Assembly: GCA_964016885.1 (NCBI GenBank)
Contig: OZ024740.1
Location: 272,366,001 to 272,430,000 of the forward strand
Reading direction: 5' to 3'
Source: Eledone cirrhosa
Taxonomy: Eukaryota
Length of the DNA stretch: 64,000 bases
Both the position numbers and the translations under genes were made by a program. The notes beneath the pieces were generated by a model. It worked only from the letters and a program-made list of their open reading frames with translations, searched no databases and was not told the origin of the DNA. Each line of letters begins with the position of its first letter. Position 1 is the stretch's first letter. Of this stretch, positions 4,591 to 55,955 are shown in pieces.

Positions 4591-4924
4591 CTTTCGAAAT
4601 ATATTTGCTTTTGAAAGACAGGAGAAAGAAACGTCACTGTAAAATAGAATATTGTTGCAAACACAAAGGAATGTAAAGTACGTAATAGCCGCTGTTAACT
4701 ATGTGTAATGTAAAAACTCAACATCTAAACTTTACTTGACTAATCTCACGAAACAAAAGACATTTTCATCATATTATTATGCTAAGTAATTTAAACCCCA
4801 AACATTTAAGCATATCTCTATATCAACGTAATTCGAACTGAAAACAGGCTGAAGTGACAATTTGATTGAAAGGATGACATAAAATTCGACGCGTAAAATC
4901 AAATAGGATTATTATCTACTAACA

Positions 4925-5310
4925 GGGCGGTGAATTGGCAGTATCGGTAGAGGGTTGGACATGCTTTCCAGCATAGTTACGTCCCTTTACGATCTGAGTT
5001 CAAATCACGCCGAGGTTAACTTTGCCTTTCATTCTTACGGGGTCGATAAAATAAAGTACTAGTAATGTACTGGGTAATTGCTGGCCTTGTGCCAAAAGTA
5101 GAAACAATTATTATCTACTAACAGGGCGGTGAATTGGCAGTATCGGTAGAGGGTCGGACATGCTTTCCAGCATAGTTACGTCCCTTTACGATCTGAGTTC
5201 AAATCGCGCCGAGGTTAACTTTGCGTTTCATCCTTACGGGGTCGATAAAATAAAGTACTAGTAATGTACTGGGGTAATTGCTGGCCTTGTGCCTAAAGTA
5301 GAAACAATTA
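4925..5310 (+). mobile_element. Two tandem copies of tRNA-derived SINE (family S1)
   Basis: A-box-like tggcagtatcgg, B-box-like gagttcaaatc, body gcctttcatccttacggggtcgataaaataaagtac, end gtagaaacaatta; copies 4925-5110 and 5124-5310. Confidence 0.9.
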
Positions 5311-5666
5311 TTATCTACTAATATAATCACTTTCCGAAAAAAAAGAGGAAAAGAAGCCATGTTCATACATGCACAATTTAAGATAAGCGGTATCTAGGTA
5401 CTTTATTGTGAAGTCATGCAAAGGTTGAATTCCGTTATGAAGTGTAACAAAATGACCCCATCTCAAAGGAAATATTTTTCTCGGTTGAAAACTACAATCC
5501 TTTTGATTAATTCGCGTGATCTGAGGCAAAGAAATAGTGAGTTTTGGACGCCATCTTCGATAAAGGAAAGCTTCTCATTACATTACATCACGGCGTCTGA
5601 TTTATCGTGTCAACATGAAACTGAAAGTAACGGCATACGGTGGCATCCAAATAAATAAATGACTAA

Positions 5667-11944: not shown

Positions 11945-13379
<1,435 letters not shown>

Positions 13380-13754
13380 GGGGTAACAAATAATAGTTAA
13401 ATGCAGTCCACTTAGGTAAAGTCCAGTTATGGTATTCCAGGTAGTGGATGATATTAACGCTTGGCTTGGTTTGACTCAACAAGGCGTTTTCATAGTGATG
13501 CTGCCGGTATGCCCTAATTCCTATGTTGTAAACACTTGGAGTAATAATAAATCAGGAAAGAAGGTTGACATGGTTTTCTATACAAAAAAGGTTTTTAATC
13601 TCATAGCTGACAATTGTTTCTCTGAACTGGTAGGTCTAGAGATCGCTATTCGCTTATTTTCGCGTTACTCGATCGCTGCATTTAACTGTTATTTGTTACC
13701 CCGTATATTTAGCTCCCACCTGGTCGAGCAACACCATTAACGCACGGCAACAAC

Positions 13755-16122
13755 ATGGAGAAGCACCGTATAGGTATGTCACTGAAAAACATACCTATAC
13801 CTACAAAAAAGGACTATACACTGGGCATGATACGACGGACTAATGATTTCATCCGCAGGGTCCGATGGAAAGCTTACCATTTCGATAAGGGACCAAATAC
13901 CAACGGAAAGGAATTTTCTAAGGAGAATTACGGGTTTAAATCCTGCAAAAACCCGCTAAACAACCCCTCACTCGATGCCTTCGAGCTGGACCTTATGAAC
14001 ATGATAAGTGAAACTAAATTTAAAAAAGGAACAAATCACAACAAATTGCAAAATGACTTAAATACACTACTAAAAAAACTAAAAGACACTAACGGTATCA
14101 TAGTAAAAGCAGACAAAACATCAAACGTCTACTCTATGGACATTAACACACACAATAACTTTATCCAGCGTGAACTACATAAAAAATATAAAAAAACAAA
14201 TGAATCTACACTCACCAACATTAACGTGGAGGGCCTCAGATAGGACCGAACCGCTAACCCTGTGCAACCCAACATTTAACCTGAAGGATCACAAAAATAA
14301 CTTTGAAACTAATCCCACCATTAGATTAATATGCCCATCCAAGTCAGACATAGGTAAAATTAGCAAGAACATTCGAGATAGGGTAATCGCACAAATAAAG
14401 GGTAAACTAAAAATCAATTTATGGGGCAACACTAACGAGGCAATTAAATGGTTCAATAAAATACAAAATAGGGAGACGTGTAACTTCATACAATTTGATA
14501 TAGACGACTATTATGCATCCATATCCCCAGCTACCCTAGATAAGGCGCTTATATTTGCCCAAAATAACTCTGATCTTACCCATGATGAAATTGAAATAAT
14601 AATAGCGGCTAGGAGGACTATCATAAAATTTGAAAATAGCTACTGGGTAAGAAAGGATAGAATAAATAGCTTCGATATAACAATGGGATCAAATGATTCT
14701 GCGCAAATCACAGATATCGTGGGGCTATTCATAGCACACAACCTACATAAGGAATTCAGTAACCTCCAAGGAGGAATTTATAGGGACGACACGTTACTTA
14801 TAGCTAGGAACCTAAACAACCAGAGCATGGAAAGACTAAGAAAAAATATTAGAATATTCTTCAAAAAACTAGGCCTAAGTATTACCTACGAACTAAACCA
14901 TAAGAAGGTAAATTTTCTAGATGTGACTCTAAATCTAAATACTGGATTAATAGAACCTTTCCACAAAAATAATGAAAATCTTGCCTACATTAGTTACAAC
15001 TCAAATCACCCAAATCCATAATTAGATCCATAGCACGTAGTATATCCTTCCGAATATCCCGCTTATCCTCAAACCTAGAAATCTTTAACGAGCATGCTGA
15101 CTATTTTAATGCAGCATTACGTAGGGCCGGTCATAAAGATAAACTGCAGTATATAGTGAATAAGGACAACGTAAACAATCCTAGTAATTACTACTCCAAC
15201 CGCTCACATAATAATAGAAATAACTTGACTAGACATAGGGTTAGACACGTAACACCTGGAGTAAACGGCCAAAACACTAATAACGTAAACCCAAGAAACA
15301 ATAGAAGAAACAGACAAAGAAAATACCTATGGTTCAACCCAATATTCAACTCCTCTATAAAAACTAGACTGCCCTCTACATTCTTTAAACTAATAGATAA
15401 ACACTTCCCTATCTCACATAGATATCACAAAATACTCAATAGATCTACTATAAAACTCTCATTCTCAACAGCAGCTAACATAGAATCACACATACGCAAG
15501 ATCAACCACAGAAATATCTCTAGTAAATCAACTGCACCTATACATAACGTAGCACCGAATTATAAGCACAAACACATCACAACATCACAACCACAAAACC
15601 ATACAAACGCACAGCAGCAAAACCCCATTGGGCATATATCACAACCCACTTATAACAGAGTACTAAACAGGAATGTAAAAGCTGCACAAAATAGCGCCTA
15701 AAACTGTAACTGTCACCTACCAGATAGGTGCCCATTGGCGAACAGATGTCTCGATTCGAGCCTAGTGTACATGTGCACTGTCATCTCGGGTAACTCCACC
15801 TGGAATTACATAGGATCCACCGCGGGTTCTTTTAAAAAAAGATGGTATGTGCACAGACACTCAATGAAAAACCGTGCACTTATGGGTTCCACAACCCTCG
15901 CCAAAAAAATATGGGAACTGAAGGACAGCAACACTAACTACAGTATCAACTGGTCGAAGTTGTCGGCTGCTAAAACCTATAGTACAGGGATTTCCCACTG
16001 CGGGCTATGTGATCTTGTGCTATTGTATATCCTCAAAAATGTAAAAAGACTACTTGTTAGAAAGATCTATCTTCTGCAGACATAGAATTGCCACTAAATT
16101 CATAAGATTCAAACCTCCGTGA
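13755..16122 (+). pseudogene. PLE reverse transcriptase / GIY-YIG endonuclease ORF (disrupted)
   Basis: SLKNIPIP, FIRRVRWKA, IIVKADK, RT motifs FDIDDYYASI, MGSNDS, IYRDD, VNFLDVTLNL, SNHP, WFNP..LIDKHFP, CNC-x5-CP, VY-x11-YIGST, CGLC; frameshifts near 14235, 15013 and 16055; in-frame TAA at 15699. Confidence 0.92.
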
Positions 16123-16435
16123 ATCGAACCAACACAACATAGCTTTAAATTAGGATACCTACTACCCACAGAAATATATTCATTAAGTATACTATATCCT
16201 TCACAAGTCTATACCACACAATTGTCTGTAAGTACCTCATCTACCCACAAACTTATTCCTTCTCAGCTGCTGCCATCATTTGATCCTAAATCCTATTTTT
16301 TCTCAAATCACTACTACAATGTAATTTTACCTTCCTTTTGCCATAATTACAATTAGCACGCTTATCTCTTTGCATGTATGTATATTTTTGTACGAGTGTA
16401 TATTGATGTGTATGTATGTGTCTATGTACACATGC

Positions 16436-16532
<97 letters not shown>

Positions 16533-16932
16533 TGTGTGTGTATGTGTGTGTGTTAATATATGTGTATATTACTTCGTTAACCTCTGTATTAACTCAACAA
16601 CTATTTAGCTTTGACAGTGTTGTCCCACTCATGTATACTATTGAAGATGAAGAGAAAGACTGTAAACATTAGCTTATCTTTATAATTTAAAATTGATATA
16701 CACTTCGATACTCTGTACATGCCAAACGCTTTCTTTTGCCTCATGACAGTTAGTTTTACACGCCGTAACGTTAGATACATTATACCCCCCACCTAAGTAA
16801 TGTCAGGGTCTCCTTAAATAATTTATTAATAGCATTGTTGTAATTGTTGTTATTGTTCTAATTGAATGCCATTACTACTTCATATAGTAGCCTGTATATT
16901 CTTTTCTTGCCTGTGTATTTTCTTCATTCTCG

Positions 16933-17045
16933 CATGCTCCGAAGATCTGACTGGTTATAATTTTGTATTGGCGATCGAGTAACGCGAAAATAAGCGAATA
17001 GCGATCTCTAGACCTACCAGTTCAGAGAAACAATTGTCAGCTATG
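16933..17045 (+). ncRNA. Variant type I hammerhead in PLE pLTR (CCGAAGA core, about 60-nt stem II insert)
   Basis: catgct CCGAAGA tctgactgg...ccagttcaga GAAA caattg TC agctatg; palindromic stem III; same core in the second copy at 33942-34054. Confidence 0.7.
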
Positions 17046-17115
17046 AGATTAAAAACCTTTTTTGTATAGCAAACCATGTCAACCTTCTTTCCTGATTTAT
17101 ATATATATATATATA

Positions 17116-18500: not shown

Positions 18501-19478
18501 TTTTTGTGGAGATCTTTCTATCAACTACGAATGATTTGTGGTATGTCATGAAACATTAATAACTGATACCAGCTTCCACTTCCGCTTTTTTTAAAACCCA
18601 GCCCCAGCCCACACCACCCCGTCCCTGTCCCTCCCCACTTATACACACCGCCATTACATTACCAATTGCGCATCACAATAATATCAGCATAGAGTTTCGC
18701 ATTAATTCATGCAACTAAAATGGTGGTAGGTCTGTCTGCTCACCTCTTCGTTGAGGTAATGGTGAATGAGTGAGAGTGAGAGAGAGTGAGATATATAGGT
18801 AGAGTGAGAGAGAGGGAGAAAGAAAGAGAGAGAGAGAGAGAGAGAGTGAGAGAGAGAGAGAAAGAAAGAGAGAGAGAGTGAGATATATAGGTAGAGTGAG
18901 TGTGTGTGAGATATATATATATATATAGGTAGAGAGAGAGAGAGAGAGAAAGAAAGAGAGAGAGAGAGTGAGAGAGAGAGAAAGAAAGAGAGAGAGAGTG
19001 AGATATATAGGTAGAGAGAGTGTGTGTGAGATATATATATATATATAGGTAGAGAGAGAGAGAGAGAGGGAGAGGGAAAGGGAGAGAAGGCGAAAGAAGC
19101 AGAGAGACAAAGAAACAGAGAGAGAAGGAGAGAGAGAGAGAGAAGGAGAGAGAGAGAGAGAGAAGGAGGAAGAGATTTATATACACAGATGTAGAAAGAG
19201 AGAGGGAGAAAGAAGGAGAAAGAGGCAGAGAGGGAGAGAGAGAGAGGGGAGAAAGAGAGACAAAGAAACATATATATATATATATAAAGAGAGAGAGAGC
19301 AGGAGGGAGAGAGATACACAGATGTAGAAAGAGAGAGTGAGAGAGAGGGAAAGAAGGAGAGAGAGAGAGAGAGAGAAGGAGAGAGAGTCAGTCAGACAGA
19401 CATAAAGATTGACATGACTGTGTGTGTGTGTGAGTGAGTGTGTGTGTGTGTGCGGAATATGTTAAAAATAAAAAGTAA

Positions 19479-19852
19479 TAATTGTTTCTACTTTTGGCAC
19501 AAAGCCAGTAATTATCTCAGTACATTACTGGTACTTTATTTTATCGATCCCGTAAGGATGAAAGGCAAAGTTAACTTCGGCGGGATTTGAACTCAGACCG
19601 TAAAGAGACGTAACTATGCTAGAAAGCATGGCGTCCGACCTTCTACCGATACTGCCAATTCGCCGCCCTAAAATAATTGTTTCTACTTTTGGCACAAGGC
19701 CAGCAATTACCTAGTGCATTACTGGTACTTTATTTTATCGACCCCGTAAGGATGTAAGGCAAAGTTAACCTTGGCAGAATTTGAACTCAAATCGTAAAGG
19801 GACGTAACTATGCTGCAAAGCATGGCGTCCGACCCTCTACCGATACTGCCAA
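19479..19852 (-). mobile_element. Two tandem SINE S1 copies
   Basis: Reverse complements of S1 at about 19479-19668 and 19674-19852. Confidence 0.9.
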
Positions 19853-28140: not shown

Positions 28141-28378
28141 ATTTTATAGCACTAGCATCAATCCTTCATAATCAGCCTATAGATTTTTCTGCCAATTCTC
28201 GTAACTTCGACCAAAGTCAAAATTGCGTAACAAACGCGACTCTACTTTATTAATTGTTAAATTTTATTAATGTTCAATAAGCGTGACATACATAATTCCT
28301 GTCTTAAGTTAATAGTGGTAAACTTCCTATAAAATTTGTATTAATCTTTGTCCAAAGATATGGATAATATTGCAAAAT

Positions 28379-29266
28379 AATGGTTTCCTATTTAGGCACA
28401 AGACTAACAATTTTTGCGGATGAGAAAATCGATAAAATCGACCCTAGTGCGTTACTGGCACTTTATTTTATTAAATCAATAGGGATGAAAGACAAAGCTA
28501 ACCTCGGTGGGATTTGAACTTAGAAAGTAAAAGGACATAACTACATGCTGCAAAGTATTATGTCCGACGCTCTACCGACACTGCCAGTCAACTGCCCTAT
28601 TACAAAATAATAATGGTTTCTACTATAGGCACAAGGCCAGCAATGTTGGGGGAAAGGAAAGTCGATCAAATCGACACCAGTACGTTACTGGTGCTTTATT
28701 TTATCGAACCCCGTACGGATGAAAGGCAAAGTTAACCTCGGTGGGATTTGAACTCAGATCATAAAGGGCCGTAACTCTTTGCTGCAAAGCATGGCGTCCG
28801 ACCCTCTACCGAGACTGCCAATCCACCGCCCTTCTCTTAATGGTTTCTTATATAGGCCCAAGGCCAACAATTTTTGGGGAGAGGAAAATCGATTAAATTC
28901 CCCCAGTGCATGACTGGTACTTTATTTTATCGACCCCGTAAGGATGAAAATCAAAGTTAACCTCGGTGCGATTTGAACTCAGATCATAAAGGGCCGTAAC
29001 TCTATGCTGAAAAGCATGGTGTCCGACACCCTACCGATACTACCAATCCACCGCTCTATTACAAAATAGTAATAAAAAATAATTATTTCTACTTTTGACA
29101 CAAGGCCAGCGATTATTCAGTGTATTACTGGTACTTTATTTTATCGACCCCGTAAGGATGAAAGGCAAAGTTAACCTCGGCGGGATTTGAACTTAGACTG
29201 TAAAGGGACGTAACTCTATGCTGCAAAGCATGGTGTCCAACTCTCTACCGATACTGCCAATCTACC
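28379..29266 (-). mobile_element. Cluster of four head-to-tail SINE S1 copies
   Basis: About 28379-28598, 28612-28831 and 28839-29056 (long-tail subtype), 29081-29266 (short-tail subtype). Confidence 0.88.
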
Positions 29267-33687: not shown

Positions 33688-33887
33688 TATATATATATTT
33701 ATATATAAATATAAATTCAGCGAGAATCGTATTTCGGCTGGTAGAAAAAGCGAAACGAAACACAAAATCGTATAAATATTGGCAAGCGCTCCAATAGTTA
33801 AGAAAACTAGAGCTAAACAATGTTAAAACGCCATACAAACTCAAAAAGTGGTCAAAAAACAAATGAAGCTAAACAGGTCAATATATA

Positions 33888-35215
33888 TAAATCAGGAAAG
33901 AAGGTTGACATGGTTTGCTATACAAAAAAGGTTTTTAATCTCATAGCTGACAATTGTTTCTCTGAACTGGTAGGTCTAGAGATCGCTATTCGCTTATTTT
34001 CACGTTACTCGATCGCCAATACAAAATTATAACCAGTCAGATCTTCGGAGCATGCGAGAATGAAGAAAATACACAAGCAAGAAAAGAATATACAGGCTAC
34101 TATATGAAGTAGTAATGGCATTCAATTAGAACAATAACAACAATTACAACAATGCTATTAATAAATTATTTGAGGAGACCCTGACATTACTTAGGTGGGG
34201 GGTATAATGTATCTAACGTTACGGCGTGTAAAACTAGCTGTCATGAGGCAAAAGTAAGAGTTTGGCATGTACAGAGTATCGAAGGGTGTATCAATTTTAA
34301 ATTATGAAGATAAGCTAATGTTTACAGTCTTTCTCTTCATCTTCAATAGTATACATGAGTGGGACAACACTGTCAAAGCTAAATAGTTGTTGAGTTAATA
34401 CAGAGGTTAACGAAGTAATATACGCATATATTTATACACACACACATACACACACACACATACACACACACACACATATATATATACACATGCATGTGTA
34501 CATAGACACATTCATACACATCAATATACACTCGTACAAAAATATACATACATGCAAAGAGATAAGCGTGCTAATTGTAATTATGGCAAAAGGAAGGTAA
34601 AGTTACATTGTAGTAGTGATTTGAGAAAAACAAGGATTTAGGATCAAATGATGGCAGCAGCTGAGAAGGAATAAGTTTGTGGGTAGATGAGGTACTTACA
34701 GACATTTGTGTGGTATAGACTTGTGAAGGATATAGTATACTTAATGAATATATTTCTGTGGGTAGTAGGTATCCTAATTTAAAGCTATGTTGTGTTGGTT
34801 CGATTCACGGAGGTTTGAATCTTATGAATTTAGTGGCAATTCTATGTCTGCAGAAGATAGATCTTTCTAACTTATTGTTAAGTAGCCTTTTTACATTTTT
34901 GAGGATATACATTAGCTCAAGATCACATAGCCCGCAGTGGGACATCCCACGATCTCTAGACCTACCAGTTCGGAGAAACAATTGTCAGCTATGAGATTAA
35001 AAACCTTTTTTGTATAGCAAACCATGTCAACCTTCTTTCCTGATTTATTATTACTCCAAGTGTTTACAACATAGGAATTACGGCATACCGGCAGCATCAC
35101 TATGAAAACGCCTTGTTGAGTCAAACCAAGCCAAGCGTTAATATCATCCACTACCTGGAATACCATAACTGGACTTTACCTAAGTGGACTGCATTTAACT
35201 ATTATTTGTTACCCC

Positions 35216-52521: not shown

Positions 52522-54069
52522 CACATGTGTAGCGTATTTACCCATGTATCCATACACAAAAAGTTACACATGCATTCGCATATGTATATGTATGCATATA
52601 TGTATATATTTATGTGTGCGTATATGTGCTCTGCATGTATGCATGCATGCATGCATGTATGTATGTATGTATGTATATATGTATATATGTATGTATGTAT
52701 GTTTATGTTTGTATGTATGTATATGTGTGTATGTACGTATCTGTAAGTATGAGTACATACTGCTACACACACACACACACACACACATACATACACACAC
52801 ACATACACACACCACACACACCACACACACAAACACACACGCAGTGTTAGTCGCTACTAGCAGCCGCTAGTGTACATGATGTTGTGACTGATTAACTTAC
52901 GCGTTGTTAAATTTCTGAAAAGTCACTGAATATTCGAGATATGCTGTGAATTGGTTGTAGAAGCCGCAAGGTGGGTCTGGCTTCTTCTCCTTTACACATC
53001 ATTCAAAAACTTGCAACACCAACCTGATACCTGATACCCTCTGTAATTGGCAGGAGATATCCCATGAGACTTATTAGAAAATATACATCTATGTAGATCT
53101 ATGTACTTTTATGTAGATTTATGTAGGTCTATATAGACTAGCTATGAGTTTAGTACAATACAATTTCTTTCATGGCGACTGTTAATAATGATATAAAATA
53201 AAATAAAATAAAATAAAATAAAATAAAATAAAATAAAATAAAATAAAATAAAATAAAATAAAATAAAATAGTATAGAATAAAATGAAATGTGTGAGAAAA
53301 TTCCAGTTTTCGAAAACTTTACATTCCCTCCTCCTGGAGACATACATGGTATGTGAAAAACTTATAGAAAAATAGGAGAAGACAACGAAGTTCGCCGAAA
53401 TATTTTGTGGACATGTGTATTTTTTGCGTATGTGATTGTATGTGTCTGTGCATGTGTGTGTGTGATTGTGTGTGTGAATGTTTGTGGTGGTGGATTGAGG
53501 TAGTGATTTTAACGTCGTAAATCACATCTGAACTTTTAGAACCTCACAGTTCCTTAATAACCACATTACCTCGGTGCAGTTGTCATGTAATACTGGACGA
53601 TCAAATCACTGCAGATTTTACGAGTCTATCCCACTTAGTGAGTAAGACGTTACTGGTATTATTTAGCTAATGATAAGGTGGTGAATTAACAGAGTCATAA
53701 GAACATTAATATGCATGTCTCGGCATTTGTTCAAATCTCTTTGAGATCAACTTTGTCTTCCATTTTTCAGGATCGATAAATACAGTCCCAATTCAAGGAC
53801 GATAGATCGATGGAATCATTAACATGTCGGAAGGGAAGCTTTGCAGTATTGGTTCCGTCTCGGTGCGTTCTATATTGAAATCCCACCTCCTGGTACCGGA
53901 AAAGAGGTGACATTTCCACCAGGAGATACCATCGCTGGATAATGTGCGTATTCCATGGCAGGATGGCCTCTCGTGGGAAGTAATTGGCTTATAAAAGCGA
54001 TCAGGAACATTCACAAATACTAACTGAAATATGTTATGATTTATCACACATTGCTGTAAGAAGAAAGAA

Positions 54070-54275
54070 CGGTTTCTGATATAGGCACAAAGCCTACAAT
54101 TTTAGGGGAGGGGAAAGTCGATTGAAGCGATCCCAGTGTATTACTGGTACTTAATTTTATCGACCCCGCAAGGATGAAAAGCAAAGTTAACCTCGGCGGG
54201 ATTTGAACTCAGAACATAAATGGCCACAACTCTCTGCTGCAAAGAATGGTGTCTGACTCTCTACCGATTCTGCAA
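54070..54275 (-). mobile_element. SINE S1 long-tail subtype
   Basis: Reverse-complement match. Confidence 0.85.
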
Positions 54276-54584
54276 ATAACAATCTAACTGTGTGCAAGAG
54301 AAATGCTTCGTGTGTCTGAATCTAATGCTCCCTCTTTGATTTTTTAAAGACAGTTTGAAAAAGTTTCAGAAAAATGTTATTTAAAAAGACGCTTTTGCTG
54401 TTGTTGTTAGATATTTAGTCTTGTGTAGACTATGGTAGAAAAGATATTGATCAAAGGTATTCCAGCCGTGATCGTCTCGTCTTTTGTATATCAGAGACTA
54501 CATTGTCCAGTAGTCTGTAAGAAGTAATTGGAGGGATATGTGTCTGCTTATTCTAGCTTTGTGAGCGACCTTATAGAGCTTATA

Positions 54585-54693
54585 GGAGGGTCATGTTGCC
54601 AATAAGAAACACACGCACCAGTTGCTTTCTCTCCAATTTATTATAAATTAAATTTATAAATTTAAGAATTTATAAATTTCCGATTGGTTGGTT
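54585..54693. mobile_element. Family G fragment
   Basis: Matches 32371-32463. Confidence 0.75.
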
Positions 54694-54786
54694 ATTAGTA
54701 ATACATACCGTTTTCAAAGACATCCCTGTATAGATAAGAAATGCATAATCTGTAAACTAAGCCCCCATATTATCAGTAAAACTAGA

Positions 54787-54880
<94 letters not shown>

Positions 54881-54896
54881 TATTTTATATATATAT

Positions 54897-54927
<31 letters not shown>

Positions 54928-55170
54928 ATAATAATATATTTAGAAACACACAGATACATGCGGACACACACATATACATGAATGCATCCGCACCCAACCG
55001 TGAGTTAAGGGTGCCAACTTCACCGATGTTGCTCAATGAATGACTGGGACAGACCAATCCGGTTGAACCAGACTAAACCAGTATCAGAGTTAAAAATACA
55101 TTATGAAGAGAGAAGAAACATTTAGATATAATTAGTAATAAAATGTATCATACCTAAATTGCTCCTAGAT

Positions 55171-55260
55171 TCCTCGACTACGTAGTTTCGTGGCATAAAC
55201 AAAAACAATACATCATAAAGATATAGAGTCCTTGCGAGGTCTGCCGACTTATCAAGAGGA
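55171..55260 (-). ncRNA. Type I hammerhead, U3-A8 variant core (family H)
   Basis: Reverse complement of 55702-55791. Confidence 0.8.
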
Positions 55261-55701
55261 TACCTCATTTACTAGTCTCAAGAACGCGTCTACACGACGT
55301 GAGAAAGAATCCCAAAAAGCGGAGGGGGAGATAGTCACGCGATATAACGGTCGAGAAACAGAGCTAAGCCTCTTATAACCCCGAAGAAAATACCACGGAG
55401 GCGGAGGGGGTATTTATATCGAAGCCGTAGAAGAGGTGGTGAAGGGGGCGAGAAGTATGAGTAATGGAAGCTTTCCAGCAGTCCCCACACTTCAAAGATT
55501 GCTCGACCAGAGGGAGTTATTAACAATATATTTAGAAACACACTGATACATGCGGACACACACATATACATGAATGCATCTGCACCCAACCGTGAGTTAA
55601 GGGTGCCAACTTCACCGATGTTGCTCAATGAATGACTGGGACAGACCAATCCGGTGAACCAGACTGAACCAGTATCAGAGTTAAAAATACATTATGAGGT
55701 A

Positions 55702-55791
55702 TCCTCTTGATAAGTCGGCAGACCTCGCAAGGACTCTATATCTTTATGATGTATTGTTTTTGTTTATGCCACGAAACTACGTAGTCGAGGA
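55702..55791 (+). ncRNA. Type I hammerhead, U3-A8 variant core (family H)
   Basis: tcctc TTGATAA gt(c)ggca...tgccac GAAA ctacgtag TC gagga; palindromic stem III; GUC triplet. Confidence 0.8.
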
Positions 55792-55865
55792 ATCTAGGAG
55801 CAGTTTAGGTATGATACATTTTATTACTAATTATATCTAAATGTTTCTTCTCTCTTCATAATATA

Positions 55866-55955
<90 letters not shown>

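Follow-up and report, generated by a model that had tools for sequence, protein, structure and literature searches.

Metazoan non-LTR retrozymes, the closest described systems, consist of non-coding tandem monomers with a type I hammerhead and a GC content below 45%, and the available text of two sources (PMC7229834; 10.64898/2026.07.22.740005, the latter with a vertebrate focus) treats them as derivatives of Penelope-like elements (PLEs), on which they are proposed to depend. The hallmarks of PLEs are partial tandems, inverted 5' copies and a one-end tail, according to the available sections of PMC8557442, and Craig et al. note that the tail is often found at one end only, which foreshadows the end rule reported below. 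Hydra-clade PLEs, including Hydra-1_Obim, combine these features with (TA)n targets and a hammerhead near the terminus, and the supplement of PMC8557442 includes a Hydra family from an octopus. For the Poseidon PLE, the available portion of PMC11167929 describes two internal start sites, extension on both strands and a predicted dimer.

Here we describe family H, represented in the window (the whole 64-kb stretch of DNA analysed) by one of about 3,400 non-coding 593-base tandem repeats with a predicted self-cutting RNA. H is probably a non-autonomous derivative of Hydra-clade PLEs, i.e. a non-LTR retrozyme, likely copied into (TA)n by the RT-endonuclease of a young PLE family, W. The observed basis of this reading comprises tandems, random 5' truncation, inverted arms, two fixed ends, the rule pairing these ends (the ab rule), TA targets, a motif shared with W together with its spacing, and hammerhead conservation. 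No published description of family H or of the ab rule was found, subscription papers, Repbase and bioRxiv supplements lying outside the scope of the search.

Like the metazoan retrozymes in the available text of PMC7229834 and 10.64898/2026.07.22.740005, H is a non-coding tandem with a type I hammerhead and a GC content (43.3%) below 45%. Its 593-nt monomer, however, falls outside the 150-450 nt given for the 2020 retrozymes (PMC7229834, available text) and within the 51-972 nt of the 2026 preprint (10.64898/2026.07.22.740005, available text), and, unlike the canonical retrozyme hammerhead, that of H has U3-A8, a 5-bp stem I and a 46-nt stem II insert. The words 'inverted', 'microsatellite' and 'target site' occur 0 times in the accessible text of PMC7229834, whereas H has inverted arms, fixed ends and microsatellite targets. 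With the Hydra-clade PLEs of PMC8557442 (available sections) H shares the (TA)n targets, partial tandems, inverted 5' copy, one-end tail and hammerhead near the terminus, but it is without an ORF and its tail measures about 170 nt against 30-40 nt.

The insertion in the window

The insertion comprises 1.3 sense monomers and a 169-nt inverted arm, arranged head-to-head inside (TA)n (Table 1; 30 best-match loci were mapped), with inverted repeats at 55091-55268 / 55694-55871 and a direct repeat period of 592. The original prediction had proposed a monomer of about 592 bp in a unit of 1.3 monomers plus an inverted arm. The period holds in the window, with intact monomers elsewhere in the genome ranging from 591 to 597 nt, and both parts of the unit are there, but the hammerhead it cited (cut after 55786) sits in the inverted arm, the sense strand being minus. 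The sense strand, the Penelope-like origin, the partner element and the two-site end rule had been missed, while the wider claim is supported, namely that the hammerhead is under selection and belongs to a tandem unit that is non-coding, resembles a retrozyme and carries an inverted arm within (TA)n.

Table 1 Features of the family H insertion and of a family W copy in the window
Feature	Position	Strand	Remark
Main arm, 1.3 monomers, sense	54934..55697	-	3' end = site b, runs into (TA)n; locus L001
Inverted arm	55694..55862	+	outer end = site a, runs into (TA)n; 4-nt overlap with main arm
Type I hammerhead motif, inverted arm	55702..55791	+	core 55707-55713, U3-A8; predicted cut after 55786
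Type I hammerhead motif, main arm	55171..55260	-	core 55255-55249; predicted cut after 55176
Internal site a copy	55100..55117	-	pyrimidine run, then AT-rich; ~76 nt 3' of predicted cut
Internal site b copy	55526..55543	-	166 nt 3' of site a, tandem register
12-base motif also in Hydra PLE 5' UTR	55499..55510	-	candidate signal for protein binding; 15 nt 3' of site b
TATA-like and GC-box-like stretch, upstream of hammerhead	55400..55418	-	read by eye; possible promoter
(TA)n target tract, left side	54791..54933	.	sequence
(TA)n target tract, right side	55863..55951	.	sequence
Frameshifted Hydra-clade PLE copy, family W	13378..17100	+	inverted 5' arm ends at W site b; 3' end at W site a

As originally predicted, no convincing ORF is present: the longest of the ATG frames that span the hammerhead has about 48 codons and is stopped early in an old-subfamily copy. 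An ORF for RT and GIY-YIG is absent from the H monomer, and the 55 unbiased regions (see below) map as monomer only. With a single hammerhead on each strand, the window copy is unable on its own to free a 590-nt monomer through two cuts in one strand, and as a source of monomers it is probably a dead end.

Other repeats were observed in the window. A short two-part fragment of another PLE at 54585-54790 adjoins H, and a second retrozyme-like family lies at 60630-61420 on the minus strand. This family has an inverted arm, a canonical CUGAUGA hammerhead whose core lies at 60878, and a 3' end that resembles site b of H. A relaxed scan of the window gave CUGAUGA hammerhead-like motifs at 2241 (+) and 1692 (-), and copies of a SINE-like repeat of about 200 bp, some of them tandem, are found at 4908-5321, 19477-19852, 28376-29073 and 54060-54280. 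Judged by the resemblance of its SINE, the genome is probably that of an octopod.

Conservation of the hammerhead and of the 3-8 pair

The hammerhead is organised as originally claimed: stem I is formed by TCCTC (55702-55706) and GAGGA (55787-55791), the core reads TTGATAA (55707-55713), stem II pairs GTCGGCA with TGCCAC, leaving one C bulged, and holds an insert of 46 nt, stem III is palindromic, and the GUC triplet has C17 at 55786. All elements of the type I pattern (a core C3/U3-U4-G5-A6-N7-G8/A8-A9, G12-A13-A14, an NUH triplet and three helices) are present. A 21-mer core query with positions 3 and 8 left free gave 6,056 matches in the 3.0-Gb genome against 0 for the reversed 21-mer used as control, placing the motif beyond chance; the figure of about 3,400 insertions follows from the first 100 matches, which fall in 56 clusters.

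Unpaired 3/8 combinations, which the original prediction took as counting against a selected ribozyme, number 19 among the 6,056 matches when A8 copies with A or G at position 3 are not counted, a frequency in line with decay after insertion. C occupies position 3 in six of the 19, each with A8, and non-A occupies position 8 in 13, each with U3. C3-G8 was found in none of the 6,056, so the double change of C3U and G8A, put forward earlier as evidence of selection, is not visible within the family. U3-A8 is present in 102 of 103 complete hammerheads of the unbiased set, in all 49 of an old subfamily and in 11 of the 12 parsed motifs of an older sister family. Between the old and young subfamilies, fixed differences number 0 in the 44 columns of helices and core, compared with 97 in the 549 other columns (p = 2.8e-4); the corresponding contrast in columns polymorphic among young copies only, 0 of 44 against 32 of 549, is weak. 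The sister family carries compensatory pairs, two in stem I and one in stem II, which were read from core anchors because the MAFFT hammerhead alignment misregisters the H stem II, and its stem III palindromes differ from those of H. No other family with the H stem III was recovered, 30 of 31 matches being mutated H and the remaining one having no similarity to H.

The constrained fold reached -43.2 kcal/mol against an MFE of -44.3, and the stem III dimer -14.3, while folding stability relative to chance was not significant (z = -1.40). A circular fold of the monomer was 64% paired, a value computed without a shuffle control and not counted as evidence. An Rfam scan of the whole window gave 0 matches at the gathering threshold, hammerhead models included, which may be due to the long stem II insert. 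With no Rfam match and a non-significant fold stability, the case for the hammerhead rests on conservation and covariation, on which the motif is judged to be real and under selection, with self-cleavage predicted. In two dimers (G000:C19:18237720/18238311 and C5:39920686/39921283) both monomers share an unpaired core (U3-G8, U3-U8), indicating that a defective core was copied at least once.

U3-A8 hammerhead variants retain activity. The U3-A8 core by itself is not new, being known from PLE hammerheads; about 1,300 U3-A8 motifs have already been published in the hammerheads of Schistosoma PLEs (PMC4209133, available text), and it goes unmentioned in the accessible text of PMC3884650. Like the minimal hammerheads of the Schistosoma PLE Cercyon (PMC4209133, available text), that of H combines U3-A8, a short stem I, a long stem II and a predicted dimer fold, and differs from them by the 10-nt palindrome of stem III and by belonging to a uniform non-coding tandem family.

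Two fixed ends and the template

The unbiased set comprises 55 of the 56 clusters from the first 100 core matches. Left out of the counts in this work were loci L009-L011 (duplicates of L008), the second copy in L043, and L086 and L097 (repeats of other loci). All 55 regions are monomer tandems inside TA tracts, with main arms of up to 4.9 monomers, at least two hammerheads in 24 of 55 (not in the window copy) and an inverted arm in 28 of 55. The 3' ends of the main arms fall at site a in 27, at site b in 26 and elsewhere in two. Among two-armed copies, 27 use both sites, one for each arm, a further copy pairs site a with another end, and none has the same site twice (p = 1.5e-8), a likely footprint of how the driving element initiates copying. 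The same arrangement prevails among best-match loci (ab in 12, aa in one, other in three) and in the old subfamily (ab in 16, other in four, bb in one), the single bb case being two adjacent insertions, a young copy beside an old one. PLE-type partial tandems, 5' truncation, an inverted 5' copy and a one-end tail are thus all found in H. The arm junctions mostly overlap by 0-7 nt, a few being near-perfect palindromes, and the lengths of the two arms are uncorrelated, which ruled out that both arms halt at a common 5' point and leaves one RNA shared by both arms no more than a possibility. An origin of the two arms from different RNA subfamilies was likewise ruled out, their divergence (0.63%) being that between tandem copies.

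The nearest parallel is the Anolis Poseidon element PAc, which in the available text of PMC11167929 also has two internal start sites 3' of the hammerhead, extension of both strands and AT-rich targets. The H sites, however, lie five times further apart and have TA-like microhomology with the target, whereas PAc starts without homology, and a rule of one site per strand is not stated for PAc in the text available.

Copies truncated exactly at the predicted cut were counted with genome-wide patterns and classified by hand, rows other than true starts being point mutants. They accounted for 18 of 46 match rows, or 15 events. The corresponding rows at nearby positions were 9 of 9 (520), 7 of 7 (523), 3 of 15 (524), 15 of 36 (526), 3 of 14 (527) and 5 of 8 (528). 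This excess of 15 events over 3-14 at five neighbouring positions (p = 0.006, 2-3-fold, with letter filters unequal between positions) is a modest hint that transcripts may be cleaved there. A separate count of 0 among 83 5' ends near the cut was set aside as evidence, since those loci had been selected for sequence upstream of the cut. More than 99% of the cDNAs that reach the predicted cut read through it, and with nearly all other cDNAs passing the site, the templates must have been uncut or religated.

Monomers differ by 0.6% within an insertion and by 3.05% between insertions, with 48 patterns among 56 insertions (L104 was left out of the pattern analysis). In 18 of 52 insertions, all copies share private letters, 25 in total, and recurrent within-insertion differences occur at chance level (14 non-CpG sites against 11.9 expected), an outlier column, 253, stemming wholly from the query-selected best-match set. 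Such internal uniformity over many lineages favours one monomer copied repeatedly, and we lean towards an RNA circle, or re-copying of the same molecule, as the template of H. An uncut linear read-through multimer, used with the same partner and the same priming while cutting is rare or serves another step and no circle forms, is for this sub-step a serious if somewhat less probable alternative. It accords with the read-through of the cut in nearly all H copies, with Poseidon insertion in vitro that is not blocked by hammerhead mutants (PMC11167929, available text) and with Xenopus retrozyme dimers that stayed uncut in vitro in 8 of 9 cases (10.64898/2026.07.22.740005, available text). A heterogeneous array of about 19 units could also yield multimeric transcripts, but 14 columns vary among its units, with a pattern that repeats, while recurrence within insertions is at chance; many lineages, moreover, each yield internally uniform multimers, and the small 5'-end excess at the predicted cut likewise speaks against a linear template. 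The array itself (G000:C2:334192000-334204500; L116, L165 and L166), with about 19 H monomers in a higher-order pattern of 4-5 units, is a nascent satellite.

A candidate Hydra-clade partner and a proposed model for copying

Among the best 150 candidates of a protein search, family W has many near-intact copies. Its intact ORF of 794 aa shows the Hydra-clade marks RWK, DKT, CxCX5C and a C-terminal endonuclease, which were read from the ORF against section 11 of PMC8557442 (as available), and its targets are (TA)n. The identity of the W copy in the window as a Naiad was dropped because its endonuclease is C-terminal, and Pfam gave nothing above threshold on the broken Hydra pieces in the window. 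A second, shorter two-armed W insertion was observed at 33880-35065, its site a end at about 33890. W follows the same end rule as H, with ab in 12 of 12 two-ended copies at 18 loci (13 of 13 calls, of which L158 is spurious), as do both two-ended copies of the family Hydra 3. Sites a and b are 171 nt apart in W and 166 nt in H, and a 12-mer common to both lies 17 nt (W) and 15 nt (H) after site b. Five further Hydra families (W2, 2, 3, 4 and 5; best 150 candidates scored per protein search) each have a version of the 12-mer, and in all six, with 61-84% protein identity to W, the motif, partly read by eye, stands about 34 nt before the ATG. The H-W similarity amounts to one 22-nt stretch with no extended alignment, whose score of 29 only equals the best of 60 shuffles, so the link rests on position and clade-wide conservation.

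All six Hydra families also have a hammerhead-like motif, in which stem II holds a long insert and stem III is palindromic or nearly so. They have 70-90 nt between the core halves, whereas five novel Hydra entries in supplement S2 of PMC8557442 (available part) have short loops and C3-G8. U3-A8 occurs in 16 of 18 motifs of Hydra 2 and 11 of 11 of Hydra 3, and C3-G8 in W (34 of 34, with C at position 4), W2, Hydra 4 and Hydra 5, the W2 call relying on one motif and two of four Hydra 4 parses being mis-anchored. With U3-A8 in two families and C3-G8 in four, the 3-8 pair covaries, likely through one change rather than several because Hydra 2 and 3 group together (support 88/91). The compensatory change of the original prediction therefore exists between Hydra PLE families, but probably with a single origin, and is absent inside H. 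The C at position 4 was seen in the W motifs at L149 3580-3670 and at 13606-13620 and 17027-17041 of the window, and in most copies of this young family a U-U pair closes stem II of the predicted hammerhead.

We consider W the probable current driver of H. Median within-insertion divergence is similar in H (0.445%, 30 loci) and W (0.46%, 14 loci, a sample biased young because the loci were chosen for intact ORFs). Site a and the motif are 181 nt apart in H and 188 nt in W, against 151 in Hydra 2, 146 in Hydra 3 and 144-152 in the sister family, the anchors varying by a few bases between families. That another TA-targeting PLE drives H, be it Hydra 2, Hydra 3, a Hydra family yet to be found or one of Neptune or Naiad type, is unlikely. 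The H core is indeed like those of Hydra 2 and 3, with which it shares U3-A8, and unlike that of W, but the a-b spacing of these families is 138 and 131 nt against 166 in H, and their within-insertion divergence of 2.4-2.6% makes both older than young H. The protein searches scored the best 150 candidates each, and among these no autonomous element with the pLTR or terminus of H was found. A PLE fragment lies beside H in the window, and at L179 an H arm is fused directly to a 5'-truncated piece of another PLE, by what may be a template switch or a nested insertion; the L179 piece, however, has no copy of the shared motif within the 1.7 kb analysed, and cephalopod Naiads are described as long inactive (PMC8557442, available text). 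The L179 piece consists of a C-terminal GIY-YIG part and a minimal hammerhead and is related to the window fragment at 54585-54790. By its motifs, we take it to be Neptune-like.

Spread as a satellite by DNA-level tandem amplification, with arms formed by fold-back or rearrangement and a chance or relic hammerhead, would suit the one long array, the few near-perfect palindromic junctions and the non-significant folding z-score but is highly improbable. The copies number in the thousands, are dispersed and 5'-truncated, and have their 3' ends at two fixed sites within (TA)n, and the hammerhead is conserved and covaries; this reading is already largely refuted by the fixed ends and an ab rule common to a coding PLE.

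Under the preferred reading, copying by W, the W protein, probably as a dimer, would bind H RNA near the shared 12-base motif and nick both strands of a TA tract, site a serving to prime one target strand and site b its complement. From there, synthesis of each cDNA would proceed in the upstream direction past the hammerhead, over as many as several monomers, and the two truncated cDNAs would be joined by 0-7 nt of microhomology; where one cDNA is lost, a copy with one arm would result. Multimeric transcripts are likely cut into monomers by the hammerhead acting as a dimer via its palindromic stem III, and these monomers would likely be circularised and copied round more than once. It is further speculated, tentatively, that the Hydra-clade protein acts as an asymmetric dimer on a hammerhead-made circle, with one subunit priming at site a, the other at b, and a distance to the short conserved motif that is particular to each family, and that H arose from a U3-A8 retrozyme of the Hydra 2/3 lineage and switched to W by lengthening its spacer to 181 nt; the descent is suggested by the sister-family distance of 144-152 nt, which resembles the 146-151 nt of Hydra 2 and 3.

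What is of value in the finding is chiefly the end rule and the naming of a partner, and less so U3-A8. The ab rule, which rests on thousands of young, short copies and holds in the coding partner too, is a clean statistic that any model of how the tandem, inverted and tailed structure of PLEs originates must explain. The work also names a specific retrozyme-PLE pair with a candidate recognition motif, and shows that positions 3 and 8 covary in nature between related PLE families whose hammerheads are missed by Rfam. If the proposed mechanism is true, H would be a minimal 593-nt substrate defining what a PLE protein needs for cargo insertion into both strands of a TA tract.
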